Assembly (NCBI GenBank): GCA_017505525.1
Contig: JAFVPB010000002.1
Span: forward strand, 163,508-227,507
Direction: 5' to 3'
Length of the DNA stretch: 64,000 nucleotides
Source of the DNA: Clostridia bacterium
Lineage (GTDB): Bacteria > Bacillota > Clostridia > UMGS1883
Part shown: piece after piece, positions 2,422 to 53,320 of the stretch
How positions within the stretch are numbered: the stretch's first letter is position 1
How the letters are laid out: each line of letters begins with the position of its first letter
Program-made: the position numbers and the translations under genes
The notes under the pieces: model-generated
Database searches by the model: none
Told to the model about the DNA's origin: nothing
What the model saw: only the letters and a program-made list of their open reading frames with translations

Positions 2422-3825
2422 TTAATAATATTCTCCGTTTATCTCACATTTTGTGATTTTATCTGCCACATTGTTAACGGCATATATATCTCCGTTACCT
2501 GATACTATATCAAAGTCGGAATATACATACGGAGAAACAAGCCTTATCCCCTCGCCGTCGAAGGTATAATAGCCATCATTTACAAGGCTTACGGAATATG
2601 GTGCATAATCCATGTGATTTTCGGGAGACCACAGGCATTTAACATAAAGCTTTCCATTTGCTTTGCCTATAATTTTAATTGAGTTGTAGTCGCCGTAGCT
2701 GATTTCTGTAAGCACACCTTCTTTTGAAAGCTTCCACATTCTTCTGTTTTGAAGGTAGTGCCTGAAGGTAGTTTGAGCATAGTCAACGGTGTTAAAATAT
2801 ATATCTCCGTTCAGCTCATACACATTTTCCACTGTTTTGAAAAGCCCGAGCGGTATTAAAGTGTCGTTTGATTTAATAAAGGTGTGGTTTTCTTTTCTTC
2901 CCCAGTTTCCGTTTTCTCCGTAATTATAAGTATAAATATTAACGTCGACCACTTCCAGAGGAAGATAAACTGACGATGTATATGCAGATACTGTGTACTC
3001 CGCCTCCACAACGTCATCGGGCTTGGCATAGTCATTCTTTGCTTCTTCAATGAAAATGCCATCAAGCTTCTGATCCTTGTAATAAACGCATCCGTCGTTC
3101 ACTGTAACATCAAATTTTGTATTTTGTATAGTATTCTCTTTTTCAACATAGTTGTCAAGCTGCACCATATTCCCAGTGCTATAGTCCAGACTGTAATACT
3201 CTGTTATATAATCATAATCAATGCTTCCGTCTTCAAGAAGAGTTTCTTTATCATAATACAAGCTTAACACAGCATCGTTTTCACGCTTTTCTATAAGCTG
3301 GTAGCGAAAAGCAGTGTTATTTACAGTATTAATCCTAAAGATATTATTCTCAAAGCTTATCTTCCAGCCGAAATTATTAACCGCATATTCCCACGTTGCG
3401 GGAAAATATGTAACTCCACGGAAATTTAAAAGAGGATATTCGCTCGAGCCGTTATCAATCTTTTTTCCATTGACATACACATTATACCCCTTTGGCACTA
3501 CGGCAGTATTATATTTCTGATTTGCCATTGTTTCATAGACAGGCAGCTTATCATCACACGGATTATATGCCACCATAAAAGCCGTACCCTCAAGCCAGCC
3601 TGTGGTAAGATTTAACGCCCTTGCGTATTCGTAAGTCATAGGAATATAGGTTATGCCCTTATAGTTTAAAAAGGGATATAAAGAATCGGCATAATAAACA
3701 AGAGAATCATCAATTATAACCTGATAATCAGGGATTTGCACGCTAACTTCATTATCTGCCGAAGCCGAAAAACAAAAGCAGTTTAAAATAAGCATTACTG
3801 CAACTAAAAACACCATTTTCTTCAT
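2422..3825 (-). CDS. Secreted hypothetical protein (signal peptide; two stalk-like repeats, then a probable beta-propeller-like region)
   Basis: N-terminal MKKMVFLVAVMLILNCFCFSASA signal peptide. Duplicated motif YKGITYIPMTYEYARALN / FRGVTYFPATWEYAVNNFGW. GGAGG RBS. Confidence 0.6.
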   Translation of the reverse strand: MKKMVFLVAVMLILNCFCFSASADNEVSVQIPDYQVIIDDSLVYYADSLYPFLNYKGITYIPMTYEYARALNLTTGWLEGTAFMVAYNPCDDKLPVYETMANQKYNTAVVPKGYNVYVNGKKIDNGSSEYPLLNFRGVTYFPATWEYAVNNFGWKISFENNIFRINTVNNTAFRYQLIEKRENDAVLSLYYDKETLLEDGSIDYDYITEYYSLDYSTGNMVQLDNYVEKENTIQNTKFDVTVNDGCVYYKDQKLDGIFIEEAKNDYAKPDDVVEAEYTVSAYTSSVYLPLEVVDVNIYTYNYGENGNWGRKENHTFIKSNDTLIPLGLFKTVENVYELNGDIYFNTVDYAQTTFRHYLQNRRMWKLSKEGVLTEISYGDYNSIKIIGKANGKLYVKCLWSPENHMDYAPYSVSLVNDGYYTFDGEGIRLVSPYVYSDFDIVSGNGDIYAVNNVADKITKCEINGEYY

Positions 3826-3999
3826 AATTCATTTCCTCCTTTTCTCGTCCCGAAGGGATATATCGCATTACGAAGTAATATATCGCACCGCAAGGTATAT
3901 CGCAAATTCCACAGGAAATTTATATCACTGAGTTTATCTTCGATGAAATAATTATATGATTTTGTCAAGTCAGGGACAAAAAATTAGTTTTGTAAATTA

Positions 4000-4587
4000 T
4001 TACTCATTTTCTTCTTTCTTGACGCAATACCCATAAGTGTAAATACTATTTGCGGTGCCATGCTCATATCTTGCCATAACTCTGATAACCGGGAACAAGA
4101 CAGTATTTTCATCAACTCTTACACTAATACTTGTTTCACTCTTACAATCGTTCAAATCCCATTGACCGCCATAGTTTGAAATTATAGTTTCTCCAACATA
4201 AACACCCAAAGCAAAAAGTATCCTGCCTGTATTTTGCGATAGAATACCATCATCCTTGTTTTGCTCATCAAAGAAACGATCAACATCTTTTAAGCTTTCA
4301 ATCGAAAAATCTGCCTGGTAGCCTGATGATTCAAGAGCTGTTTTTATCCATTCTTTAGCCGTAACAATATCCTTTTTCAATGATTCTATATCAAGAGATT
4401 GTTTTTCAGGAGAATTTGATGCAATTCTTATTATGACTACAACTGCTGTTAATCCCATTAAAATTAACCTTGGCATTATATCCATTATTGAGTTTCCTTC
4501 AGATATTGTACCATACACAATCATTCCAAGACATATTATTAAGATTGCAATTAAAGTTATTATTTTTGTTTTTGCTGACATTTTCAT
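4000..4587 (-). CDS. Hypothetical membrane protein (2 TM helices plus a C-terminal soluble domain)
   Basis: ORF track 195 aa. Two hydrophobic helices in the first 60 aa. I recognise no family signature. Confidence 0.5.
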   Translation of the reverse strand: MKMSAKTKIITLIAILIICLGMIVYGTISEGNSIMDIMPRLILMGLTAVVVIIRIASNSPEKQSLDIESLKKDIVTAKEWIKTALESSGYQADFSIESLKDVDRFFDEQNKDDGILSQNTGRILFALGVYVGETIISNYGGQWDLNDCKSETSISVRVDENTVLFPVIRVMARYEHGTANSIYTYGYCVKKEENE

Positions 4588-4823
4588 TTTCCTTTTTCTT
4601 TTTATGCTTTATTCGTTTTTGTCCCTTGTATATCAAAGCTTATGATTTTGTCAAGTTAGGGACAAAAAAAATTCAATGGTTTATCGGCGGTTTTCAAAAC
4701 CGCCAATAAATTCATACGATTAAAATGCCTTTCTAAAGGCTTCCCCTTGAGGGGAAGCTGTCACGAAGTGACTGATGAGGTGTTAATATGATTCAGTATA
4801 TCCTGACATACATTTTCAAATCT

Positions 4824-5126
4824 TTAATTAACATCTAAATTGGAATATCTCAATACTTTAATTCCTAAATTATTTAGAAATTCATCTCTTTTTGTATCAT
4901 TTTCTATACCACTCTCTCCATAGTGTTGTGAACCATCAAGTTCAATAACAATTTTAGCCGATGCAATATAGAAATCAACGATATAATTGCCAATCACCTT
5001 TTGTCGATTAACAGTTATAGGTAAAGTTTTCAGAAAATCATACCAAAGATGTCTTTCTTCTTTTGTCATATTTTTTCTTAATGTTTTTGCATTACCCGTT
5101 AATTTTGAATTATTAGTCTTGTTCAT
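4824..5126 (-). CDS. DUF559 (Vsr-like endonuclease fold) domain protein
   Basis: LRKNMTKEERHLWYDFL...FRRQ-like core...DFYIASAKIVIELDGSQH...D..RD..L...G..VLR, the typical DUF559 pattern. ATG at 5126 is preceded by a GAGGTGG RBS; the longer 5153 start would include the flanking repeat. Confidence 0.75.
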   Translation of the reverse strand: MNKTNNSKLTGNAKTLRKNMTKEERHLWYDFLKTLPITVNRQKVIGNYIVDFYIASAKIVIELDGSQHYGESGIENDTKRDEFLNNLGIKVLRYSNLDVN

Positions 5127-5435
5127 TTCCACCTCATCCGAGTTGCTTCGCAACCCACCTTCCCCTCAAGGGGAAGGCTTTTTTGTCCCTTGTATATCAA
5201 ACTTTAAAATCAATGAATAATTTAGATGCCACTGTTTTTTTGTCGATATGTAGACTTCGTCTACTCGATATTTTTACTTCGTAAAATCGATATGTTTTCC
5301 CTTTGGTCAAACTCGATATGATATAAATCTCGTTGCGTCAGTAACATATCGAGCCGTCAGGCATATCGAGTGCTTTAGCATATATCGAAAATCTCGCAAG
5401 AGATTTATATCGCTGAATTCATCTCCGATGAATTC

Positions 5436-5464
5436 ATTATACCACACATATTTCCCACATTCAA
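5436..5464 (-). promoter_or_regulatory. Sigma-A type promoter reading toward the hairpin array and the DUF559 gene
   Basis: Minus strand TTGAAT (5464-5459), 17 nt, TGgTATAAT (-10 at 5441-5436, extended -10 TG). It lies directly after the terminator of the upstream operon. Confidence 0.55.
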
Positions 5465-5477
5465 GGCTTCAGCCCCA

Positions 5478-5516
5478 TAAAAAAGATTGGTGCATAGTTT
5501 TTCACTGCACCAATCT
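5478..5516 (-). terminator. Rho-independent terminator of the MATE/ceramidase-like operon
   Basis: 11-bp stem agattggtgca / tgcaccaatct followed by a T-run on the minus strand. Confidence 0.7.
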
Positions 5517-5521
5517 GCATA

Positions 5522-6856
5522 TCAGAGTTCGTTTAAAAGCTTTACCATACCATCAACCATAATATTATCCCCACCCGGAGCAAGTGAAGAACCTCTGGCC
5601 TCGTATCCGCCTTCTTCATATGCCTGTGTTGTAGGAATATAACCGCCAGCACTGTTGGTAAGGCAACACAGTATTGTTGTGCTAAAAGGAGATTCGGCAC
5701 AAATACGGTTTCCTATCTCTGTAAAGGGTTCTCCACCTATTCCTGCAAATACTAAATCTCCAACTTTAATTGCCGAAAAATTAAATTTAAATGCCTCAGG
5801 GCCATTTTCAAGCTTAACAATGCGACTAGCTTCTGCAACCGCCGTAGTAAGCTCCATTTCCTTGTATGGAAGCTCATTCGCTCTGCCTGCTTCGTACAAT
5901 TCAAATATCTTTTTTGCTTCCTCGAGCCTGTCATTCTCCTGATGTGACGGGAGCATCACCGAGCTTTTCGCAAACGATATTTTATCAGCTTTAATCTTTT
6001 CCGTTATGGAACACACCGAAAGCACTGCACCTGCAATTACTCTGCCCATATGCTCCGCGTGCTTTATACTTCTGGGAACTCCGTCGAAATCAATTTCCGA
6101 AATATCGCTTTCTCCCTTTGTTGGCCTTACATTTACGTGATTAACATCTCCCTGAGGTGCAAGAAGAAACATACATTTTGTATTGGGAACAGCATTTTCA
6201 ATGATTGAGCAGACATACCCCATATAATCGGCACTTATATACTCTCCGCCTACGGAATCGGGATGTGTGCCGAAATTGACAATAAATATATCGTCCTTAT
6301 TTTCTCTTACTATTTTAACAAGCTTTACCGTCTCATTAGGTGTTCCCAGAGCGTGGTCAATATCAGGATTATTCACGCCTGGATTTGTTGCAACCGAGCC
6401 GTCTTTCATACGATAGCGACGTATAAAGGATATATTTTTTGCCTCGCCTTGTGCTGTTTCGATTGACGATTCACAAAGGTCGTTAAAAGCATACACTGCC
6501 GCATCACGCACGCAGGACACGAGAAAAGCATCATAGGCTTCAGTGCTTTTTTTATCCGATGCAAAGTCTTTACCCACAAGTGGTCCTGTGTGGGTATGCG
6601 AGCAATTAATAAATATTGCATTTTCATCAATTCCTGCAGCCTCACTAACAGCCTTCTTAAAATCGTCATAATATTTCTGCGCAGGAGTACATAAATCAAC
6701 TGCAATAACCACAGCTTTCTTTTCTCCATCATCAAATGCCGTTGCCCTGACATATAAATCATCCTGTATACCTTTCACAAAACGCGGCTCGTAATATCCC
6801 ACAATTGGAGAGCCGTAGGGCGGATTGATACACACTTTTGAAAAACCTGTTTTCAT
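5522..6856 (-). CDS. Neutral/alkaline ceramidase-like N-terminal-domain family hydrolase (function uncertain)
   Basis: MKTGFSKVCINPPYGSPIVGYY...DDLYVRATAFDDGEKKAVVIAVDLC... resembles the neutral ceramidase-like family. ATG at 6856 avoids overlap with the MATE stop at 6880. Confidence 0.55.
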   Translation of the reverse strand: MKTGFSKVCINPPYGSPIVGYYEPRFVKGIQDDLYVRATAFDDGEKKAVVIAVDLCTPAQKYYDDFKKAVSEAAGIDENAIFINCSHTHTGPLVGKDFASDKKSTEAYDAFLVSCVRDAAVYAFNDLCESSIETAQGEAKNISFIRRYRMKDGSVATNPGVNNPDIDHALGTPNETVKLVKIVRENKDDIFIVNFGTHPDSVGGEYISADYMGYVCSIIENAVPNTKCMFLLAPQGDVNHVNVRPTKGESDISEIDFDGVPRSIKHAEHMGRVIAGAVLSVCSITEKIKADKISFAKSSVMLPSHQENDRLEEAKKIFELYEAGRANELPYKEMELTTAVAEASRIVKLENGPEAFKFNFSAIKVGDLVFAGIGGEPFTEIGNRICAESPFSTTILCCLTNSAGGYIPTTQAYEEGGYEARGSSLAPGGDNIMVDGMVKLLNEL

Positions 6857-45161: not shown

Positions 45162-46985
45162 CTACTCCACTGTTACTGATTTTGCAAGGTTTTTCGGCTT
45201 ATCAATATTGCATCCCTTTTCCTTTGCAATATAATAGCTGAAGAGCTGAAGCGGAATTATTTCTGCAACTGAAACAAACATCGGATGTGTTTCGGGAATA
45301 GAAATAACGTTATCTGCTTCCTCGTAAATCTTATGATTATTTTCAAGAGCTACGGCTAAAACATTCGCACCTCTTGCCTTTACCTCTTTGATGTTTGACA
45401 TCATCTTATCAAAAAGAGATTCCTGACAACACGGTGCTACAACAAGGCTGTTTTCATCAACAAGCGCTATTGTTCCGTGCTTCAGTTCACCCGCAGCATA
45501 CGCTTCTGAATGAACATAAGAAATTTCCTTAAGCTTAAGCGAGCCTTCCATACAGATTGCATAGTCAATATTTCTGCCAATATAGAATACACTGTCGTAA
45601 TGACTATAGTTTTTCACAAAGTCTGCCATTTGTGCATTAAGGTCAAGTGAGCGTTGTGCTCTTTCGGGGATTGAACGAATAGCCTCAATGAGTTCATTAT
45701 ATTCAGTTTCTTCTATTTTATTTAAATGGTCTCCAAGCCAGAGTGCAAGCATATTCATAACTGCAAGCTGTGTTGTATATCCCTTTGATGTTGCAACAGC
45801 AATTTCAGGGCCTGCCCAGGTATATATAACGTAATCTGAAAGCTTTGCAATTGTGCTTCCAACAACATTTACCACACTAAGAACCGTTGCCCCTCTTTCC
45901 TTACATTCTTTCATAGCCGCAATAGTATCTGCCGTTTCTCCCGACTGACTAATTACAACTACAAGTGTTTTTTCATCTATTATAGGATTACGGTAACGAA
46001 GCTCACTTGCTAAATCAACCTCCACACTTATGCGGCACAATTCTTCAATCACAAATTTACCCACATATCCCGCATGGTATGCCGAGCCACATGCCGTAAT
46101 GATTATCTTATTTATATCCTTTATTTTTTCGCCCAAAGGCTCGAGTCCCTCAAAATGTATTTTATTATCCTTTATATTTGGCTCGATTGTAGATTTAAGT
46201 GCCTTTGGCTGCTCCATAATTTCTTTAAGCATAAAGTGCTCGTATCCGCCTTTTTCAGCAGCTTCAATGTCCCACACAACTCTTGAAACACTTTTTTTCA
46301 CACTTTTTCCTGTGCAATCAAAAACATCTATTTCGTCTGGTGTAATCTCTGCAAACTCTCCGTCTTCAATATATATTATATTTTTGGTTTTGCTTATAAG
46401 TGCCGTAACATCGGAAGCAAAGAAGTTTTCTCCTACGCCCACACCTATAATTAATGGTGAGCCGAGCTTGGCAGCAAACACACTCTTGGGAAATTCACTG
46501 CAAACAACTCCAAGAGCGTAAGACCCCTCAAGCCTTGATACAGTTTTCATAAGCGCTTTTCTAACATCGCCCTCATAGTAGTATTCTAAAAGATGTACTA
46601 CAACCTCTGTGTCGGTTTCGCTTTCAAAATTAAAACCTTTCCCCGCAAGCTCTTCTTTAAGCTCGATATAATTTTCTATTATACCGTTGTGCACAATAGC
46701 AAAGCGTCCGCTATTTGAAAGATGCGGATGAGCATTTATATCTGTGGGTGCTCCGTGAGTTGCCCAACGTGTGTGCCCTATTCCTGCACATCCGACTATA
46801 GTTTTTTCGCCAAGCTTTTCTACGAGATTATTTATCTCTCCGCTTGCCTTTACCATTGTTATTTTATTTTCATTATTTACCGCTATTCCTGAAGAATCGT
46901 ATCCTCTGTATTCAAGCCTTTTTAGCCCGCTTGTTAAAACGCTTACCGCGTCATCTTTACCTGTATAACCAACTATTCCGCACAT
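45162..46985 (-). CDS. glmS: Glutamine--fructose-6-phosphate aminotransferase GlmS
   Basis: MCGIVGY N-terminal nucleophile, two SIS domains and a C-terminal KSVTVE. Confidence 0.97.
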   Translation of the reverse strand: MCGIVGYTGKDDAVSVLTSGLKRLEYRGYDSSGIAVNNENKITMVKASGEINNLVEKLGEKTIVGCAGIGHTRWATHGAPTDINAHPHLSNSGRFAIVHNGIIENYIELKEELAGKGFNFESETDTEVVVHLLEYYYEGDVRKALMKTVSRLEGSYALGVVCSEFPKSVFAAKLGSPLIIGVGVGENFFASDVTALISKTKNIIYIEDGEFAEITPDEIDVFDCTGKSVKKSVSRVVWDIEAAEKGGYEHFMLKEIMEQPKALKSTIEPNIKDNKIHFEGLEPLGEKIKDINKIIITACGSAYHAGYVGKFVIEELCRISVEVDLASELRYRNPIIDEKTLVVVISQSGETADTIAAMKECKERGATVLSVVNVVGSTIAKLSDYVIYTWAGPEIAVATSKGYTTQLAVMNMLALWLGDHLNKIEETEYNELIEAIRSIPERAQRSLDLNAQMADFVKNYSHYDSVFYIGRNIDYAICMEGSLKLKEISYVHSEAYAAGELKHGTIALVDENSLVVAPCCQESLFDKMMSNIKEVKARGANVLAVALENNHKIYEEADNVISIPETHPMFVSVAEIIPLQLFSYYIAKEKGCNIDKPKNLAKSVTVE

Positions 46986-52247: not shown

Positions 52248-53174
52248 TCACTCGTGTTCTTCAAAGAATATATATGTATATCCGTTCTCCCAAAGCGTTC
52301 TTGCAGCTGCAAGCACTTTTGCACCATAGTCAGGCTGATAATTGTAGTAGTCCTTATAAAAATATTGCTCGTGAGTTACGTGCCCGATATATTCCTTGCC
52401 AACATTTGCTTTAATGCCGTTTACCAGATACTCTTCATCGCAGAGATTAAGACAAGGAGCATTTGAAGTAAGCGCAAATCTCATTTTCGTTTCTTCATCG
52501 GGAATTGTTTTTGTGTTATAGAGGATAGATTCTCTTTCTTCAGTGGTAATGTGATTATATCCGCAAATAGAATTATCAATCGCTTTATTAAGTCCACCTC
52601 TTTGGTAAAGCATAGTTTCGGGCTTTCTGTTGTGAAGAAGGCGTGCTGCGTGGCCGTATGGCAGAGAATTAGGGTCACCATTATATTCCCTTTTTTCTCC
52701 CGCCGAACAACAAAGCACCTTTATTCCGCCATCGTAAAGAGCACGTACCGCATCTTTGCTTATGGGCATCCAGTGCGGAAGCACGCTTTTTGCAAAAGCT
52801 TTTTCGCCTGCAAAACGCACAACTTCTTTTTTAAGAGCATCAAAATCTCGTTTCACATCGTCGTAATCTGCATTGATATACGGATAATCGGGAAATTCCT
52901 GCTTTGCATGGAAGGCAAGTCTCAGCCAGTCGGAGGCTTCTTCCCATTCTTTTTTATAGGCATCCGTCATATCGGCGAGAGTGAATTCCTCTTCCCCATA
53001 GAAAAAGTCTGTACGGTAAAAACAGTTAAGCTGAACCTTCATTCCGTATTTATCGTGTGCCTCTTTTAACAACGCCAGAAACGGATTATCAAACATTGAT
53101 TTTGGTCTTTCACGTGTTAAATCGCGGAAAACCCAGATAGTATCATCAATTAAAAAACAAGCCTCTCTTTTCAT
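52248..53174 (-). CDS. Conserved hypothetical protein, copy 2 (paralogue of 36938..37870)
   Basis: Full-length similarity to the 36938..37870 product, including GDPNSLPYGHA.RLL.NRKPE and H.KQEFPDYPYINA.Y.DVK. Confidence 0.7.
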   Translation of the reverse strand: MKREACFLIDDTIWVFRDLTRERPKSMFDNPFLALLKEAHDKYGMKVQLNCFYRTDFFYGEEEFTLADMTDAYKKEWEEASDWLRLAFHAKQEFPDYPYINADYDDVKRDFDALKKEVVRFAGEKAFAKSVLPHWMPISKDAVRALYDGGIKVLCCSAGEKREYNGDPNSLPYGHAARLLHNRKPETMLYQRGGLNKAIDNSICGYNHITTEERESILYNTKTIPDEETKMRFALTSNAPCLNLCDEEYLVNGIKANVGKEYIGHVTHEQYFYKDYYNYQPDYGAKVLAAARTLWENGYTYIFFEEHE

Positions 53175-53320
53175 TTAAAGCACCTCTTTTCATTTGATAA
53201 CTTCATTATAGAGATTATATATATTTCATTCAATACATAAAACGTTTTTTTATGGACAAAACAACGTTTTTTTGTTACAATGTATTTAGTAATTATTATG
53301 TATTATGCGAGGTTTTTACT

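Follow-up and report, generated by a model that had tools for sequence, protein, structure and literature searches.

How does a gene for an apparently secreted protein come to carry, ahead of its start codon, a row of short hairpins with different stems, joined by a nearly constant heptamer? The question is raised by a 64,000-nucleotide stretch of DNA (the window) from a Clostridia bacterium (GCA_017505525.1, contig JAFVPB010000002.1, positions 163,508 to 227,507), where such an array, here called array 1, occupies positions 3826-3956 on the minus strand. Our analysis shows that array 1 is non-random and belongs, as a truncated member, to a large family of structured repeats related to Gut-1 RNA (Rfam RF01706), and is not a device specific to its gene. 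Elsewhere in this family, canonical Gut-1 arrays and double arrays with a CGATAT-type heptamer lie directly upstream of genes for four helix bundle (4HB) proteins, an association that is new here.

Array 1 and a second array in the window

The initial annotation described four successive hairpins on the plus strand, with variable, self-complementary stems and a constant heptamer. Direct reading confirmed these: TCCC-GAA-GGGA (3848-3858), ATTAC-GAA-GTAAT (3867-3879), ACC-GCAA-GGT (3887-3896) and AAATTCC-ACA-GGAAATTT (3904-3921). The linker, said to be the same after each hairpin, is ATATCGC three times (3860-3866, 3880-3886 and 3897-3903) and ATATCAC after the fourth (3922-3928), and linker starts are 17-24 nt apart. 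The array is best read on the minus strand, the sense strand of the gene, where the heptamer becomes GCGATAT. In this direction it reaches to 3826, further than first described, and includes an additional decayed hairpin; the order is TATAAT, decayed hairpin, four heptamers alternating with four hairpins, ribosome binding site and ATG.

The terms used below are those of a full element of the family. On the sense strand this consists of a hairpin H0, an A half of four heptamer-plus-hairpin units (linkers L1 to L4, hairpins H1 to H4), a closer, and a B half that carries the heptamer in reverse complement; in many cases the Shine-Dalgarno (SD) sequence and start codon of a 4HB gene follow. Array 1 lacks closer and B half; the SD sequence and start codon of the downstream gene stand in their place. 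Bit scores for R1 refer to a covariance model of 65 A halves, mostly from other genomes.

3951-3979, minus strand: promoter-like TTGTCC-17-TATAAT (TATAAT at 3951-3956), 10 of 12 matches in the promoter scan
3933-3948, minus strand: decayed H0, TTTCATC-GAA-GAT-AAA, a fifth hairpin
3826-3928, minus strand: array 1, orphan A half; R1 57.9 bits, E 2e-10; Rfam Gut-1 35.2 bits
3922-3928 and 3904-3921, minus strand: L1, GTGATAT, and H1, AAATTTCC-TGT-GGAATTT
3897-3903 and 3887-3896, minus strand: L2, GCGATAT, and H2, ACC-TTGC-GGT
3880-3886 and 3867-3879, minus strand: L3, GCGATAT, and H3, ATTAC-TTC-GTAAT
3860-3866 and 3848-3858, minus strand: L4, GCGATAT, and H4, TCCC-TTC-GGGA
3826-3847, minus strand: CGAGAAAAGGAGGAAATGAATT in the position of the closer, including the SD sequence AGGAGG (3835-3840)
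2422-3825, minus strand: downstream gene, ATG at 3823-3825, 467 aa, signal-peptide-like N-terminal segment

The decayed H0 is homologous to GAATTCATC-GGA-GATGAATTC in the second array of the window and to GATTTCATC-GAA-GATGAAATC in relatives. The promoter-like site noted earlier ranks within the best three of the region. Its position, with the array between it and the start of gene 2422-3825, was borne out, and makes the proposed 5' untranslated region (UTR) plausible. The 467-aa product matched no Pfam family. Array 1 belongs to a 'G-type' subfamily, with the same H2 and H3 in loci L273, L293 and L290. A promoter-like box, TTTTTTGTCCCTRACTTGACAAAATCATA, is found at 3955-3985 upstream of array 1 and again at 4645-4675 upstream of a 195-aa gene (4000-4587).

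The end of array 1 had been likened to a second array at 5399-5441. The kinship holds: by eye, arrays 1 and 2 are about 80% identical from TATAAT through H1, and R1, a model drawn mostly from other genomes, recognizes array 1. Array 2 is larger than had been noted, a double array of two opposed halves (5243-5441). That the first hairpin and the closer are conserved had also been missed.

5436-5464, minus strand: promoter-like TTGAAT-17-TATAAT with TG (extended -10), from the promoter scan
5415-5435, minus strand: H0, GAATTCATC-GGA-GATGAATTC, a perfect hairpin after TATAAT
5320-5435, minus strand: A half; R1 87.1 bits (array 2 was in the R1 training set)
5407-5413 and 5389-5406, minus strand: L1, GCGATAT, and H1, AAATCTC-TTGC-GAGATTT
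5382-5388, 5363-5369 and 5346-5352, minus strand: L2 to L4, TCGATAT
5370-5381, 5353-5362 and 5332-5345, minus strand: H2, H3 and H4
5320-5331, minus strand: closer, GAGATTTATATC
5243-5319, minus strand: B half; R1 matches the plus strand at 5243-5348 with 34.8 bits
5313-5319, 5287-5293, 5265-5271 and 5243-5249, minus strand: four B linkers, ATATCGA
5294-5312, minus strand: H5, with a tandem G.A internal loop
5272-5286 and 5250-5264, minus strand: H6, TTTTAC-GAA-GTAAAA, and H7, GTAGAC-GAA-GTCTAC

Downstream of array 2, the place of a 4HB gene is taken by a DUF559 gene flanked by inverted repeats (see last section).

Runs of at least four GATAT at 14-34 nt spacing occur three times in the window (array 1 and both halves of array 2), in each case spaced by hairpins, and not once in 200 dinucleotide-preserving shuffles. 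There are no further linker/hairpin clusters of this kind in the 64 kb. The hexamer CGATAT is found 76 times against 29.6 +/- 5.4 expected; 15 of the 76 sites are within the arrays, and an approximately twofold excess persists outside them.

Relationship to Gut-1 RNA

A permissive Rfam scan gave a single notable match for array 1, to Gut-1 (3855-3930, minus strand, 35.2 bits, E 1.4e-5), below the gathering threshold of 50 bits; array 2 gave no match to the Gut-1 model at E <= 10. Gut-1 was described from human-gut metagenomes as three covarying hairpins with unconserved stems and a constant GUGAAAU between them, and was scored as an RNA that is probably not cis-regulatory (Weinberg et al. 2010, Genome Biol 11:R31, PMC2864571). 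The earlier statement that no described element has this architecture is thus wrong. At least three consecutive covarying short hairpins with one constant heptamer are also present here. The consensus linker is not: array 1 has GUGAUAU once and GCGAUAU three times, and array 2 has GCGAUAU and UCGAUAU. Some members of the Gut-1 seed alignment (Stockholm file) have GCGAUAU or GUGAUAU linkers followed by an opposed AUAUCAC half, which is the layout of array 2.

As a control, 12 of the arrays upstream of 4HB genes at loci fetched by protein similarity exceed the Gut-1 threshold, with 50.8-88.8 bits; one of them, at locus L371, equals the Gut-1 seed BAAZ01025322.1 except for one base. Homology extends beyond the region modelled in Rfam, as the layout of H0, H1, closer and B half recurs in CGATAT, GTGATAT, GTGAAAT and further lineages, and the arrays in all of these precede PF05635 genes, although the two arrays of the window have no such gene. 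Because array 1 scores 35 bits against a threshold of 50, we regard it as part of a divergent subfamily of Gut-1 with CGATAT in place of the GUGAAAU linker. That array 1 is the orphan A half of a large structured intergenic family, of which Gut-1 is the canonical branch, is well supported.

Further likenesses to Gut-1 are an A/T-rich first hairpin, the occurrence in gut Clostridia and the 4HB gene as genomic partner. The differences are that the Rfam model spans only three hairpins of the A half, that the family linker here is K-CGAUAU, and that Rfam lists a small RNA (sRNA) gene of unknown function known only from metagenomes, whereas here we find a leader or intergenic element in named lineages of metagenome-assembled genomes (MAGs) and in phages. 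The observation that prompted this work is confirmed and its earlier interpretation partly supported: the array 1 variant is below threshold and has another linker, but the canonical layout and the partner gene of the family are common to both.

A dispersed family in gut Clostridia and their phages

A loose three-linker pattern, used for the first scans of viral contigs, matched mostly tandem repeats and chance occurrences; only L097, L121 and L125 were genuine. In later scans, linker 1, hairpin 1 and linker 2 together served as the anchor. These gave at least 120 loci in a collection of species-representative genomes, and all the matches listed were in Clostridia MAGs from animal or human guts, with labels such as Oscillospiraceae, Acutalibacteraceae, Faecousia, Ruminococcus and Congzhengia. 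The organism of the window likewise comes from a gut metagenome. Phage contigs with copies are L097/L228, L121 (three arrays), L125/L223 and L221 (three arrays). More than 130 relatives with the combination of motif and hairpins are known from gut Clostridia MAGs and phage contigs, and array 1 is seen to be a truncated copy of a dispersed family, a point missed at first.

Element statistics were compiled from 137 non-identical elements, drawn from the listed loci and the phage contigs. Exactly four forward linkers are present in 108 of these and five reverse ATATC boxes in 53, while 36 have no B half (solitary A halves, some of them cut by a contig end). Only linker, H1 and closer are conserved in sequence. 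H1 follows AAATYYC-loop-GRRATTT, whereas the stems of H2, H3 and H4 are free to vary. The closer, GAGAnnGGRATTTATATC, is the reverse complement of L1 plus the 5' arm of H1. The B half has four ATATCGM linkers and recognizable hairpin types, several with internal tandem G.A/A.G. H0 is either TATAAT followed by the hairpin given above for relatives or a terminator-like hairpin flanked by A and T runs; the TATAAT plus H0 module precedes many members. The family is a common and so far unannotated repeat in genomes of Oscillospiraceae and Acutalibacteraceae and in phages, one that causes breaks in assemblies and from which unrelated genes can acquire promoters and 5' UTRs.

Several unrelated elements have a conserved, GC-rich insert of about 130 nt (GGGAGCGATGGGAGCGCYGCCGGTGGC...GCGAGCCTGYTTTGTCAGGCGAAGGTTCTGCCGGGYACCGCAACAGGA) between hairpin 4 and the closer (L125/L223 at about 5500-5620, L233 at about 4880-4990, and twice in L247), which may be a nested element or an optional domain. 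The double array at 4320-4550 of L121, in a region of phage structural genes, is flanked by an 18-bp direct repeat, CCCGGCTAAGCGAGCCGC, which takes in the upstream stop codon and half of a terminator and resembles an insertion with target duplication.

Conservation of hairpin structure

Spacers between linkers form end-anchored hairpins in 355 of 380 cases in the A half (93%) and 186 of 227 in the B half (82%), compared with only 27% of random window segments that give such a hairpin of 3 bp. In the 65-sequence alignment, 98.1% of stem cells are paired, against 76.8% with shuffled partners and at most 50% when partners are slid. Double-sided changes number 233, compared with 70 +/- 12 in shuffles, and every pair of H2 and H3 is represented by three or four pair types. 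These data show that the stems are maintained by selection. With the hairpins folded, the linkers lie at a constant distance.

A second helix is also evident. RNAalifold favours a long-range pairing of L1 and the 5' arm of H1 with the closer, and this helix covaries as H1 does, with changes of CG to UA at two positions. The H1 5' arm can thus pair with only one of two partners at a time. In the RNAfold structure of array 1, GUGAUAUAAAUUUCC is paired with the segment containing SD and AUG. For array 2 (z = -5.1), RNAfold pairs the A linkers with the B linkers (L1:L8 to L4:L5) and leaves the hairpins as branches, which accounts at the RNA level for the reverse-complement heptamer in the B half.

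A four helix bundle gene as partner

A recurrent open reading frame (ORF) of 113-122 aa (M..KTIKELAVELTVEI...NQLLRSCSSIGAN.HEAKYAQS...) is found just after the elements, and belongs to PF05635 (23S rRNA intervening-sequence protein) and TIGR02436 (four helix bundle protein). Among the 24 4HB ORFs in 916 kb fetched by DNA pattern, at least 20 are directly 3' of a double array on the same strand, with the start usually 15-19 nt from the last linker (ATATCGC). In the reciprocal fetch, by protein similarity, an automatic criterion placed an array upstream in 47 of 54 independent 4HB loci, and several more were recognized by eye.

The heptamer differs between lineages (GCGATAT, TCGATAT, GTGATAT, GTGAAAT, ATGAAAT, GAGATAT, GTGAAAT-C/A, TGATATT, GCTAAAT and GTGAAG), and the B half is always the reverse complement of the heptamer of its own lineage. 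On contig L341 two linker types occur together, each with its own 4HB gene. Two distant 4HB homologues on viral contigs (46-48% identity) are preceded by contiguous heptamer tandems, CGTAATT/TAATTCG in 3-4 copies, with no hairpin spacers (L434, about 1005-1030; L435, about 1055-1085). For canonical Gut-1 arrays, the order tRNA, terminator, array and 4HB gene is very common (L363, L371, L372, L379, L418, L427, L428, L361, L367, L430 and L433); this recalls the other home of the 4HB family, the rRNA intervening sequences.

Of the 4HB family, Avd from diversity-generating retroelements (DGRs) is pentameric, highly basic and acts in an RNA-protein complex (PMC6182149); the literature on the family yielded nothing functional beyond Avd. 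Two relatives in the PDB, 2RLD and 2GSC, have five chains each. The gene after canonical arrays is in the same family as Avd, a protein that works with a structured RNA, and has homologues that crystallize with five chains; the array loci differ in that they contain neither a reverse transcriptase nor a template repeat nor an rRNA gene. We know of no nucleic-acid specificity for PF05635 members outside DGRs.

Rfam has listed Gut-1 since 2010 as an RNA seen only in metagenomes, to which neither an organism nor a neighbouring gene nor a function was assigned, and PF05635/TIGR02436 is a large family with no known role outside DGRs. The comparative data tie these two long-standing orphans together, so that direct tests can be proposed; abundance in many lineages, physical coupling and lineage-matched heptamers make both of them testable.

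Orientation and transcription

Family members are oriented with transcription: where both neighbouring genes are co-directional, the A strand is the sense strand in 41 elements (29+12) against 6 (3+3). Tandem G.A/A.G mismatches, GNA/GNNA loops and wobble pairs in B-half hairpins are found on the sense strand only; overall, that strand has 20 G.U against 7 A.C. Both arrays of the window are directly preceded by the top promoter-like sites of the region on the minus strand. RNA-seq contigs of a cultured relative span an array into the 4HB gene, weak evidence as these data are unstranded, lack depth resolution and may derive from DNA. One bovine metatranscriptome gave fragmentary contigs only. 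We infer that the element acts as a leader RNA.

A proposed structured leader and its possible ligand

We tentatively read the element as a transcribed, structured leader whose heptamers are putative recognition sites for a 4HB protein, with array 1 as an orphan copy; this is quite possible, if short of probable. The element would act single-stranded, most likely as 5' leader RNA from the promoter-like site just upstream, and its hairpins would be spacers that, independently of stem length, hold the heptamers in a fixed geometry. Double arrays would form a branched rod as their A heptamers zip up with those of the B half, while in solitary A halves such as array 1 the heptamers would remain single-stranded. 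L1 and the 5' arm of H1 might pair either with the 3' arm of H1 or with the closer. As the closer of array 1 is the SD/AUG region, its leader could toggle between an open and a ribosome-site-occluded form. By analogy with pentameric relatives and the Avd complex, the heptamers may be bound by the cognate 4HB protein. At double arrays this protein would regulate the gene that encodes it, and dispersed copies would be its targets in trans.

A bolder proposal, which we consider rather unlikely as it stands, is that Gut-1-type arrays in general are the cognate ligands of the orphan pentameric PF05635/TIGR02436 proteins, with one heptamer for each protein lineage. If so, the heptamer would be presented four to five times round the ring, and autoregulation would take place at the double array of the gene itself. 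Dozens of dispersed copies, situated in host genes and phage late operons, would also be controlled by the 4HB protein or would titrate it. This would amount to a previously unrecognized system of protein-RNA regulation and repeats in gut Clostridia.

Several observations weigh against the leader reading. The array 1 leader is no more stable than shuffled sequences (z = -0.34); its thermodynamics give no support, and support therefore comes from comparative data. A test for position-specific pairing of flanking bases (such as L1:L8) was without signal, since the eight linkers within an element are all of one type. G.U pairs make up about 1% or less, which is unusual for RNA and fits perfect DNA palindromes. 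The A half has its favourable GNA/GNNA loops on the antisense strand. The array may not belong to the 4HB mRNA in several GTGAAAT/GTGATAT lineages, where it follows a terminator and is separated from the 4HB start by a good -35/-10 promoter. About 14 elements are situated between convergent genes. The match of five sites to a pentamer is only suggestive. Finally, no 4HB gene is present in the 64-kb window; array 1 would hence be either a target in trans or a domesticated relic, which would merely supply promoter, structured 5' end and SD to the secreted-protein gene.

Alternative explanations

Among the alternatives, a selfish or neutral dispersed repeat is the most substantial, although we think it unlikely. 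Elements would resemble repetitive extragenic palindromes (REPs), the mosaic elements built from them (BIMEs) or miniature inverted-repeat transposable elements (MITEs), and would spread by recombination or an unknown mobility, often with passenger ORFs (4HB, DUF559). Array 1 would then be a dead, truncated copy from which the gene by chance obtained a promoter and 5' UTR; the role of the heptamer would lie in propagation, not in gene regulation. Copies are indeed numerous (2 in the 64-kb window, 3 in a 13.5-kb phage contig, 3 in L221), and metagenome depth over the arrays is 10-40x that of flanking single-copy sequence. They are found in every gene context, convergent genes included. Array 1 itself has a decayed H0 and a TGATAT first linker. 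In L297, L276, L341, L310 and L305 the order is [H0-A][B][4HB][H0-A'][next gene], where A and A' are near-identical up to linker 4 and diverge from hairpin 4; this suggests recombination within A halves as the way in which a B+4HB segment is gained or lost. The 18-bp direct repeat around the L121 array, tandem elements and rearrangement joints between repeated modules point the same way. However, stems differ between copies of one genome and yet are paired, unlike those of REPs and MITEs, which indicates locus-by-locus purifying selection on structure and not copy-paste. Nor is there a consistent transposase, RAYT (the REP-associated transposase) or target-site duplication, and such a repeat would not be expected to show a strong orientation bias with transcription or to place its last linker precisely beside the SD of 4HB genes.

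We regard as improbable an array of operators in duplex DNA, in which four direct and four inverted heptamers would bind a multimeric regulator, possibly the 4HB protein, and the palindromes would be secondary. Iterons, parC and omega-type heptads are precedents. The dyad arrangement of heptamers, the perfect Watson-Crick stems with almost no G.U, and the hairpin-free tandems before distant 4HB genes agree with it, as do several lineages in which the array has a terminator upstream and the 4HB promoter downstream, so that its last heptamer abuts the -35. However, the linkers, spaced at 17-26 bp, show no phasing with the DNA helix. Duplex operators leave unexplained why more than 90% of spacers are hairpins kept by compensatory change, and why tandem G.A and GNA loops are strand-specific. 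Moreover, the CGATAT lineages have their promoter-like site upstream of the array and only the SD between array and ATG.

Two further readings are very doubtful. In one, the element would work as single-stranded DNA in replication, transfer or recombination, for example as a priming or recombination signal, each half being active on its ATATCG strand. According to Hirao, Yoshizawa and co-workers, C-GAA-G/GNA triloops, GNNA loops and Y-GA-R tandem G.A are reportedly classic features of stable DNA mini-hairpins. Features of this kind are found on the ATATCG strand of both halves, G.T pairs are scarce, the A/A' duplications have their junction near linker 4, and one phage copy (L097) adjoins an HUH Rep gene (PF23343). 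This Rep association is, however, the only one among more than 130 loci, copies per genome are far too many for origins, and no recombinase is linked. Orientation follows transcription, and the 'good' strand of the A half is the template strand. A rolling-circle origin, suggested by the Rep gene next to L097, was dropped, since no other locus has a Rep gene.

In the other, to which we give equally little credence, the element would be a free-standing sRNA gene, as Rfam has Gut-1, independent of its neighbours and perhaps antisense to the A half, running from the TGATATAAAT box of the closer to H0 as bidirectional terminator. Weinberg et al. scored Gut-1 as a probable non-cis-regulatory RNA (PMC2864571); the closer in antisense reads TG-n-TATAAA, H0 is often a bidirectional terminator, and it is the antisense strand that has the GNA loops of the A half. 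Against this, array 1 has no such closer, antisense -10 or terminator, the promoter scan called no such antisense promoters, B-half features are specific to the sense strand, and the elements are tightly coupled to downstream start codons.

Comparison with known repeat systems

The leader reading, in which heptamers are presented between hairpins, has a counterpart in the repeat RNAs of TRAP and CsrA. TRAP binds 11 (G/U)AG repeats in the trp leader, and CsrA the multi-hairpin CsrB/RsmZ. There too, several short motifs are set at regular intervals in a leader or sponge RNA, motif and subunit numbers are comparable, and the outcome is SD occlusion or an alternative structure, as proposed for the arrays. 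The array heptamer sits between hairpins, whereas the CsrA motif is in hairpin loops and TRAP motifs are 2-3 nt apart, and for the arrays partner protein and binding are hypothetical, the link to a pentamer-forming family being one of genomic neighbourhood.

REP/BIME elements of Enterobacteria are likewise abundant intergenic palindromes, often opposed, co-transcribed with their neighbours and orientation-biased, and may stabilize mRNA. REP copies are, however, one palindrome with a GTAG tetranucleotide and a RAYT, whereas in the arrays every stem differs. A near-identical palindrome with a 5' tetranucleotide is absent from arrays 1 and 2 and from the 137 elements, and no RAYT transposase was seen in the fetched flanks of family loci.

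With clustered regularly interspaced short palindromic repeats (CRISPR) the arrays have in common that constant repeats alternate with variable spacers. CRISPR repeats are at least 21 nt long and come with unique, non-palindromic spacers of about 30 nt, variable copy number and cas genes. Here the repeat is 7 nt, spacers are 10-19 nt and self-complementary, four copies prevail (108 of 137 elements), and there are no cas genes. The initial annotation had rightly set aside both CRISPR and a simple tandem repeat. Iterons and DnaA boxes, Rex/CRP-type operators, sigma-dependent pause arrays, ANTAR/RAT/T-box leaders and K-turn or C/D boxes were rejected from the sequence because their defining features are lacking.

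Other features of the window

A possible decayed A half, weak and not established, is found on the minus strand:

46665-46744, minus strand: R1 21.3 bits, E 0.03

This segment ends in GATATAAAT...TTATATC, with three small palindromes and degenerate linkers, and may be a decayed copy. The sole other periodic hexamer cluster in the window consists of four AATGAA at 13-23-nt spacing (53170-53225, minus strand).

The DUF559 gene (4824-5126/5153) downstream of array 2 lies between inverted repeats of about 45 bp (region 4737-5178, minus strand; left GCCTTCCCCTTGAGGGGAAGG-TGG-GTTGCGAAGCAAC-TCGGATGAGGTG, right CACCTCATC-AGTCACTTCGTGAC-AGCTTCCCCTCAAGGGGAAGC). Metagenome contigs stack over these repeats to 100-200x the single-copy depth, and some link about 4760 to about 5156, omitting the ORF. 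At L275 both repeats are found back to back with no ORF, and the same motif is present in L307 and L097. The unit resembles a cassette that is abundant and possibly mobile. Its region is bracketed by a 21-bp direct repeat, TTGATATACAAGGGACAAAAA, at 4617-4637 and 5180-5200, and metagenome contigs with joints between the box and repeat modules (3985/3986 to 5180/5267) suggest recombination between repeated modules.

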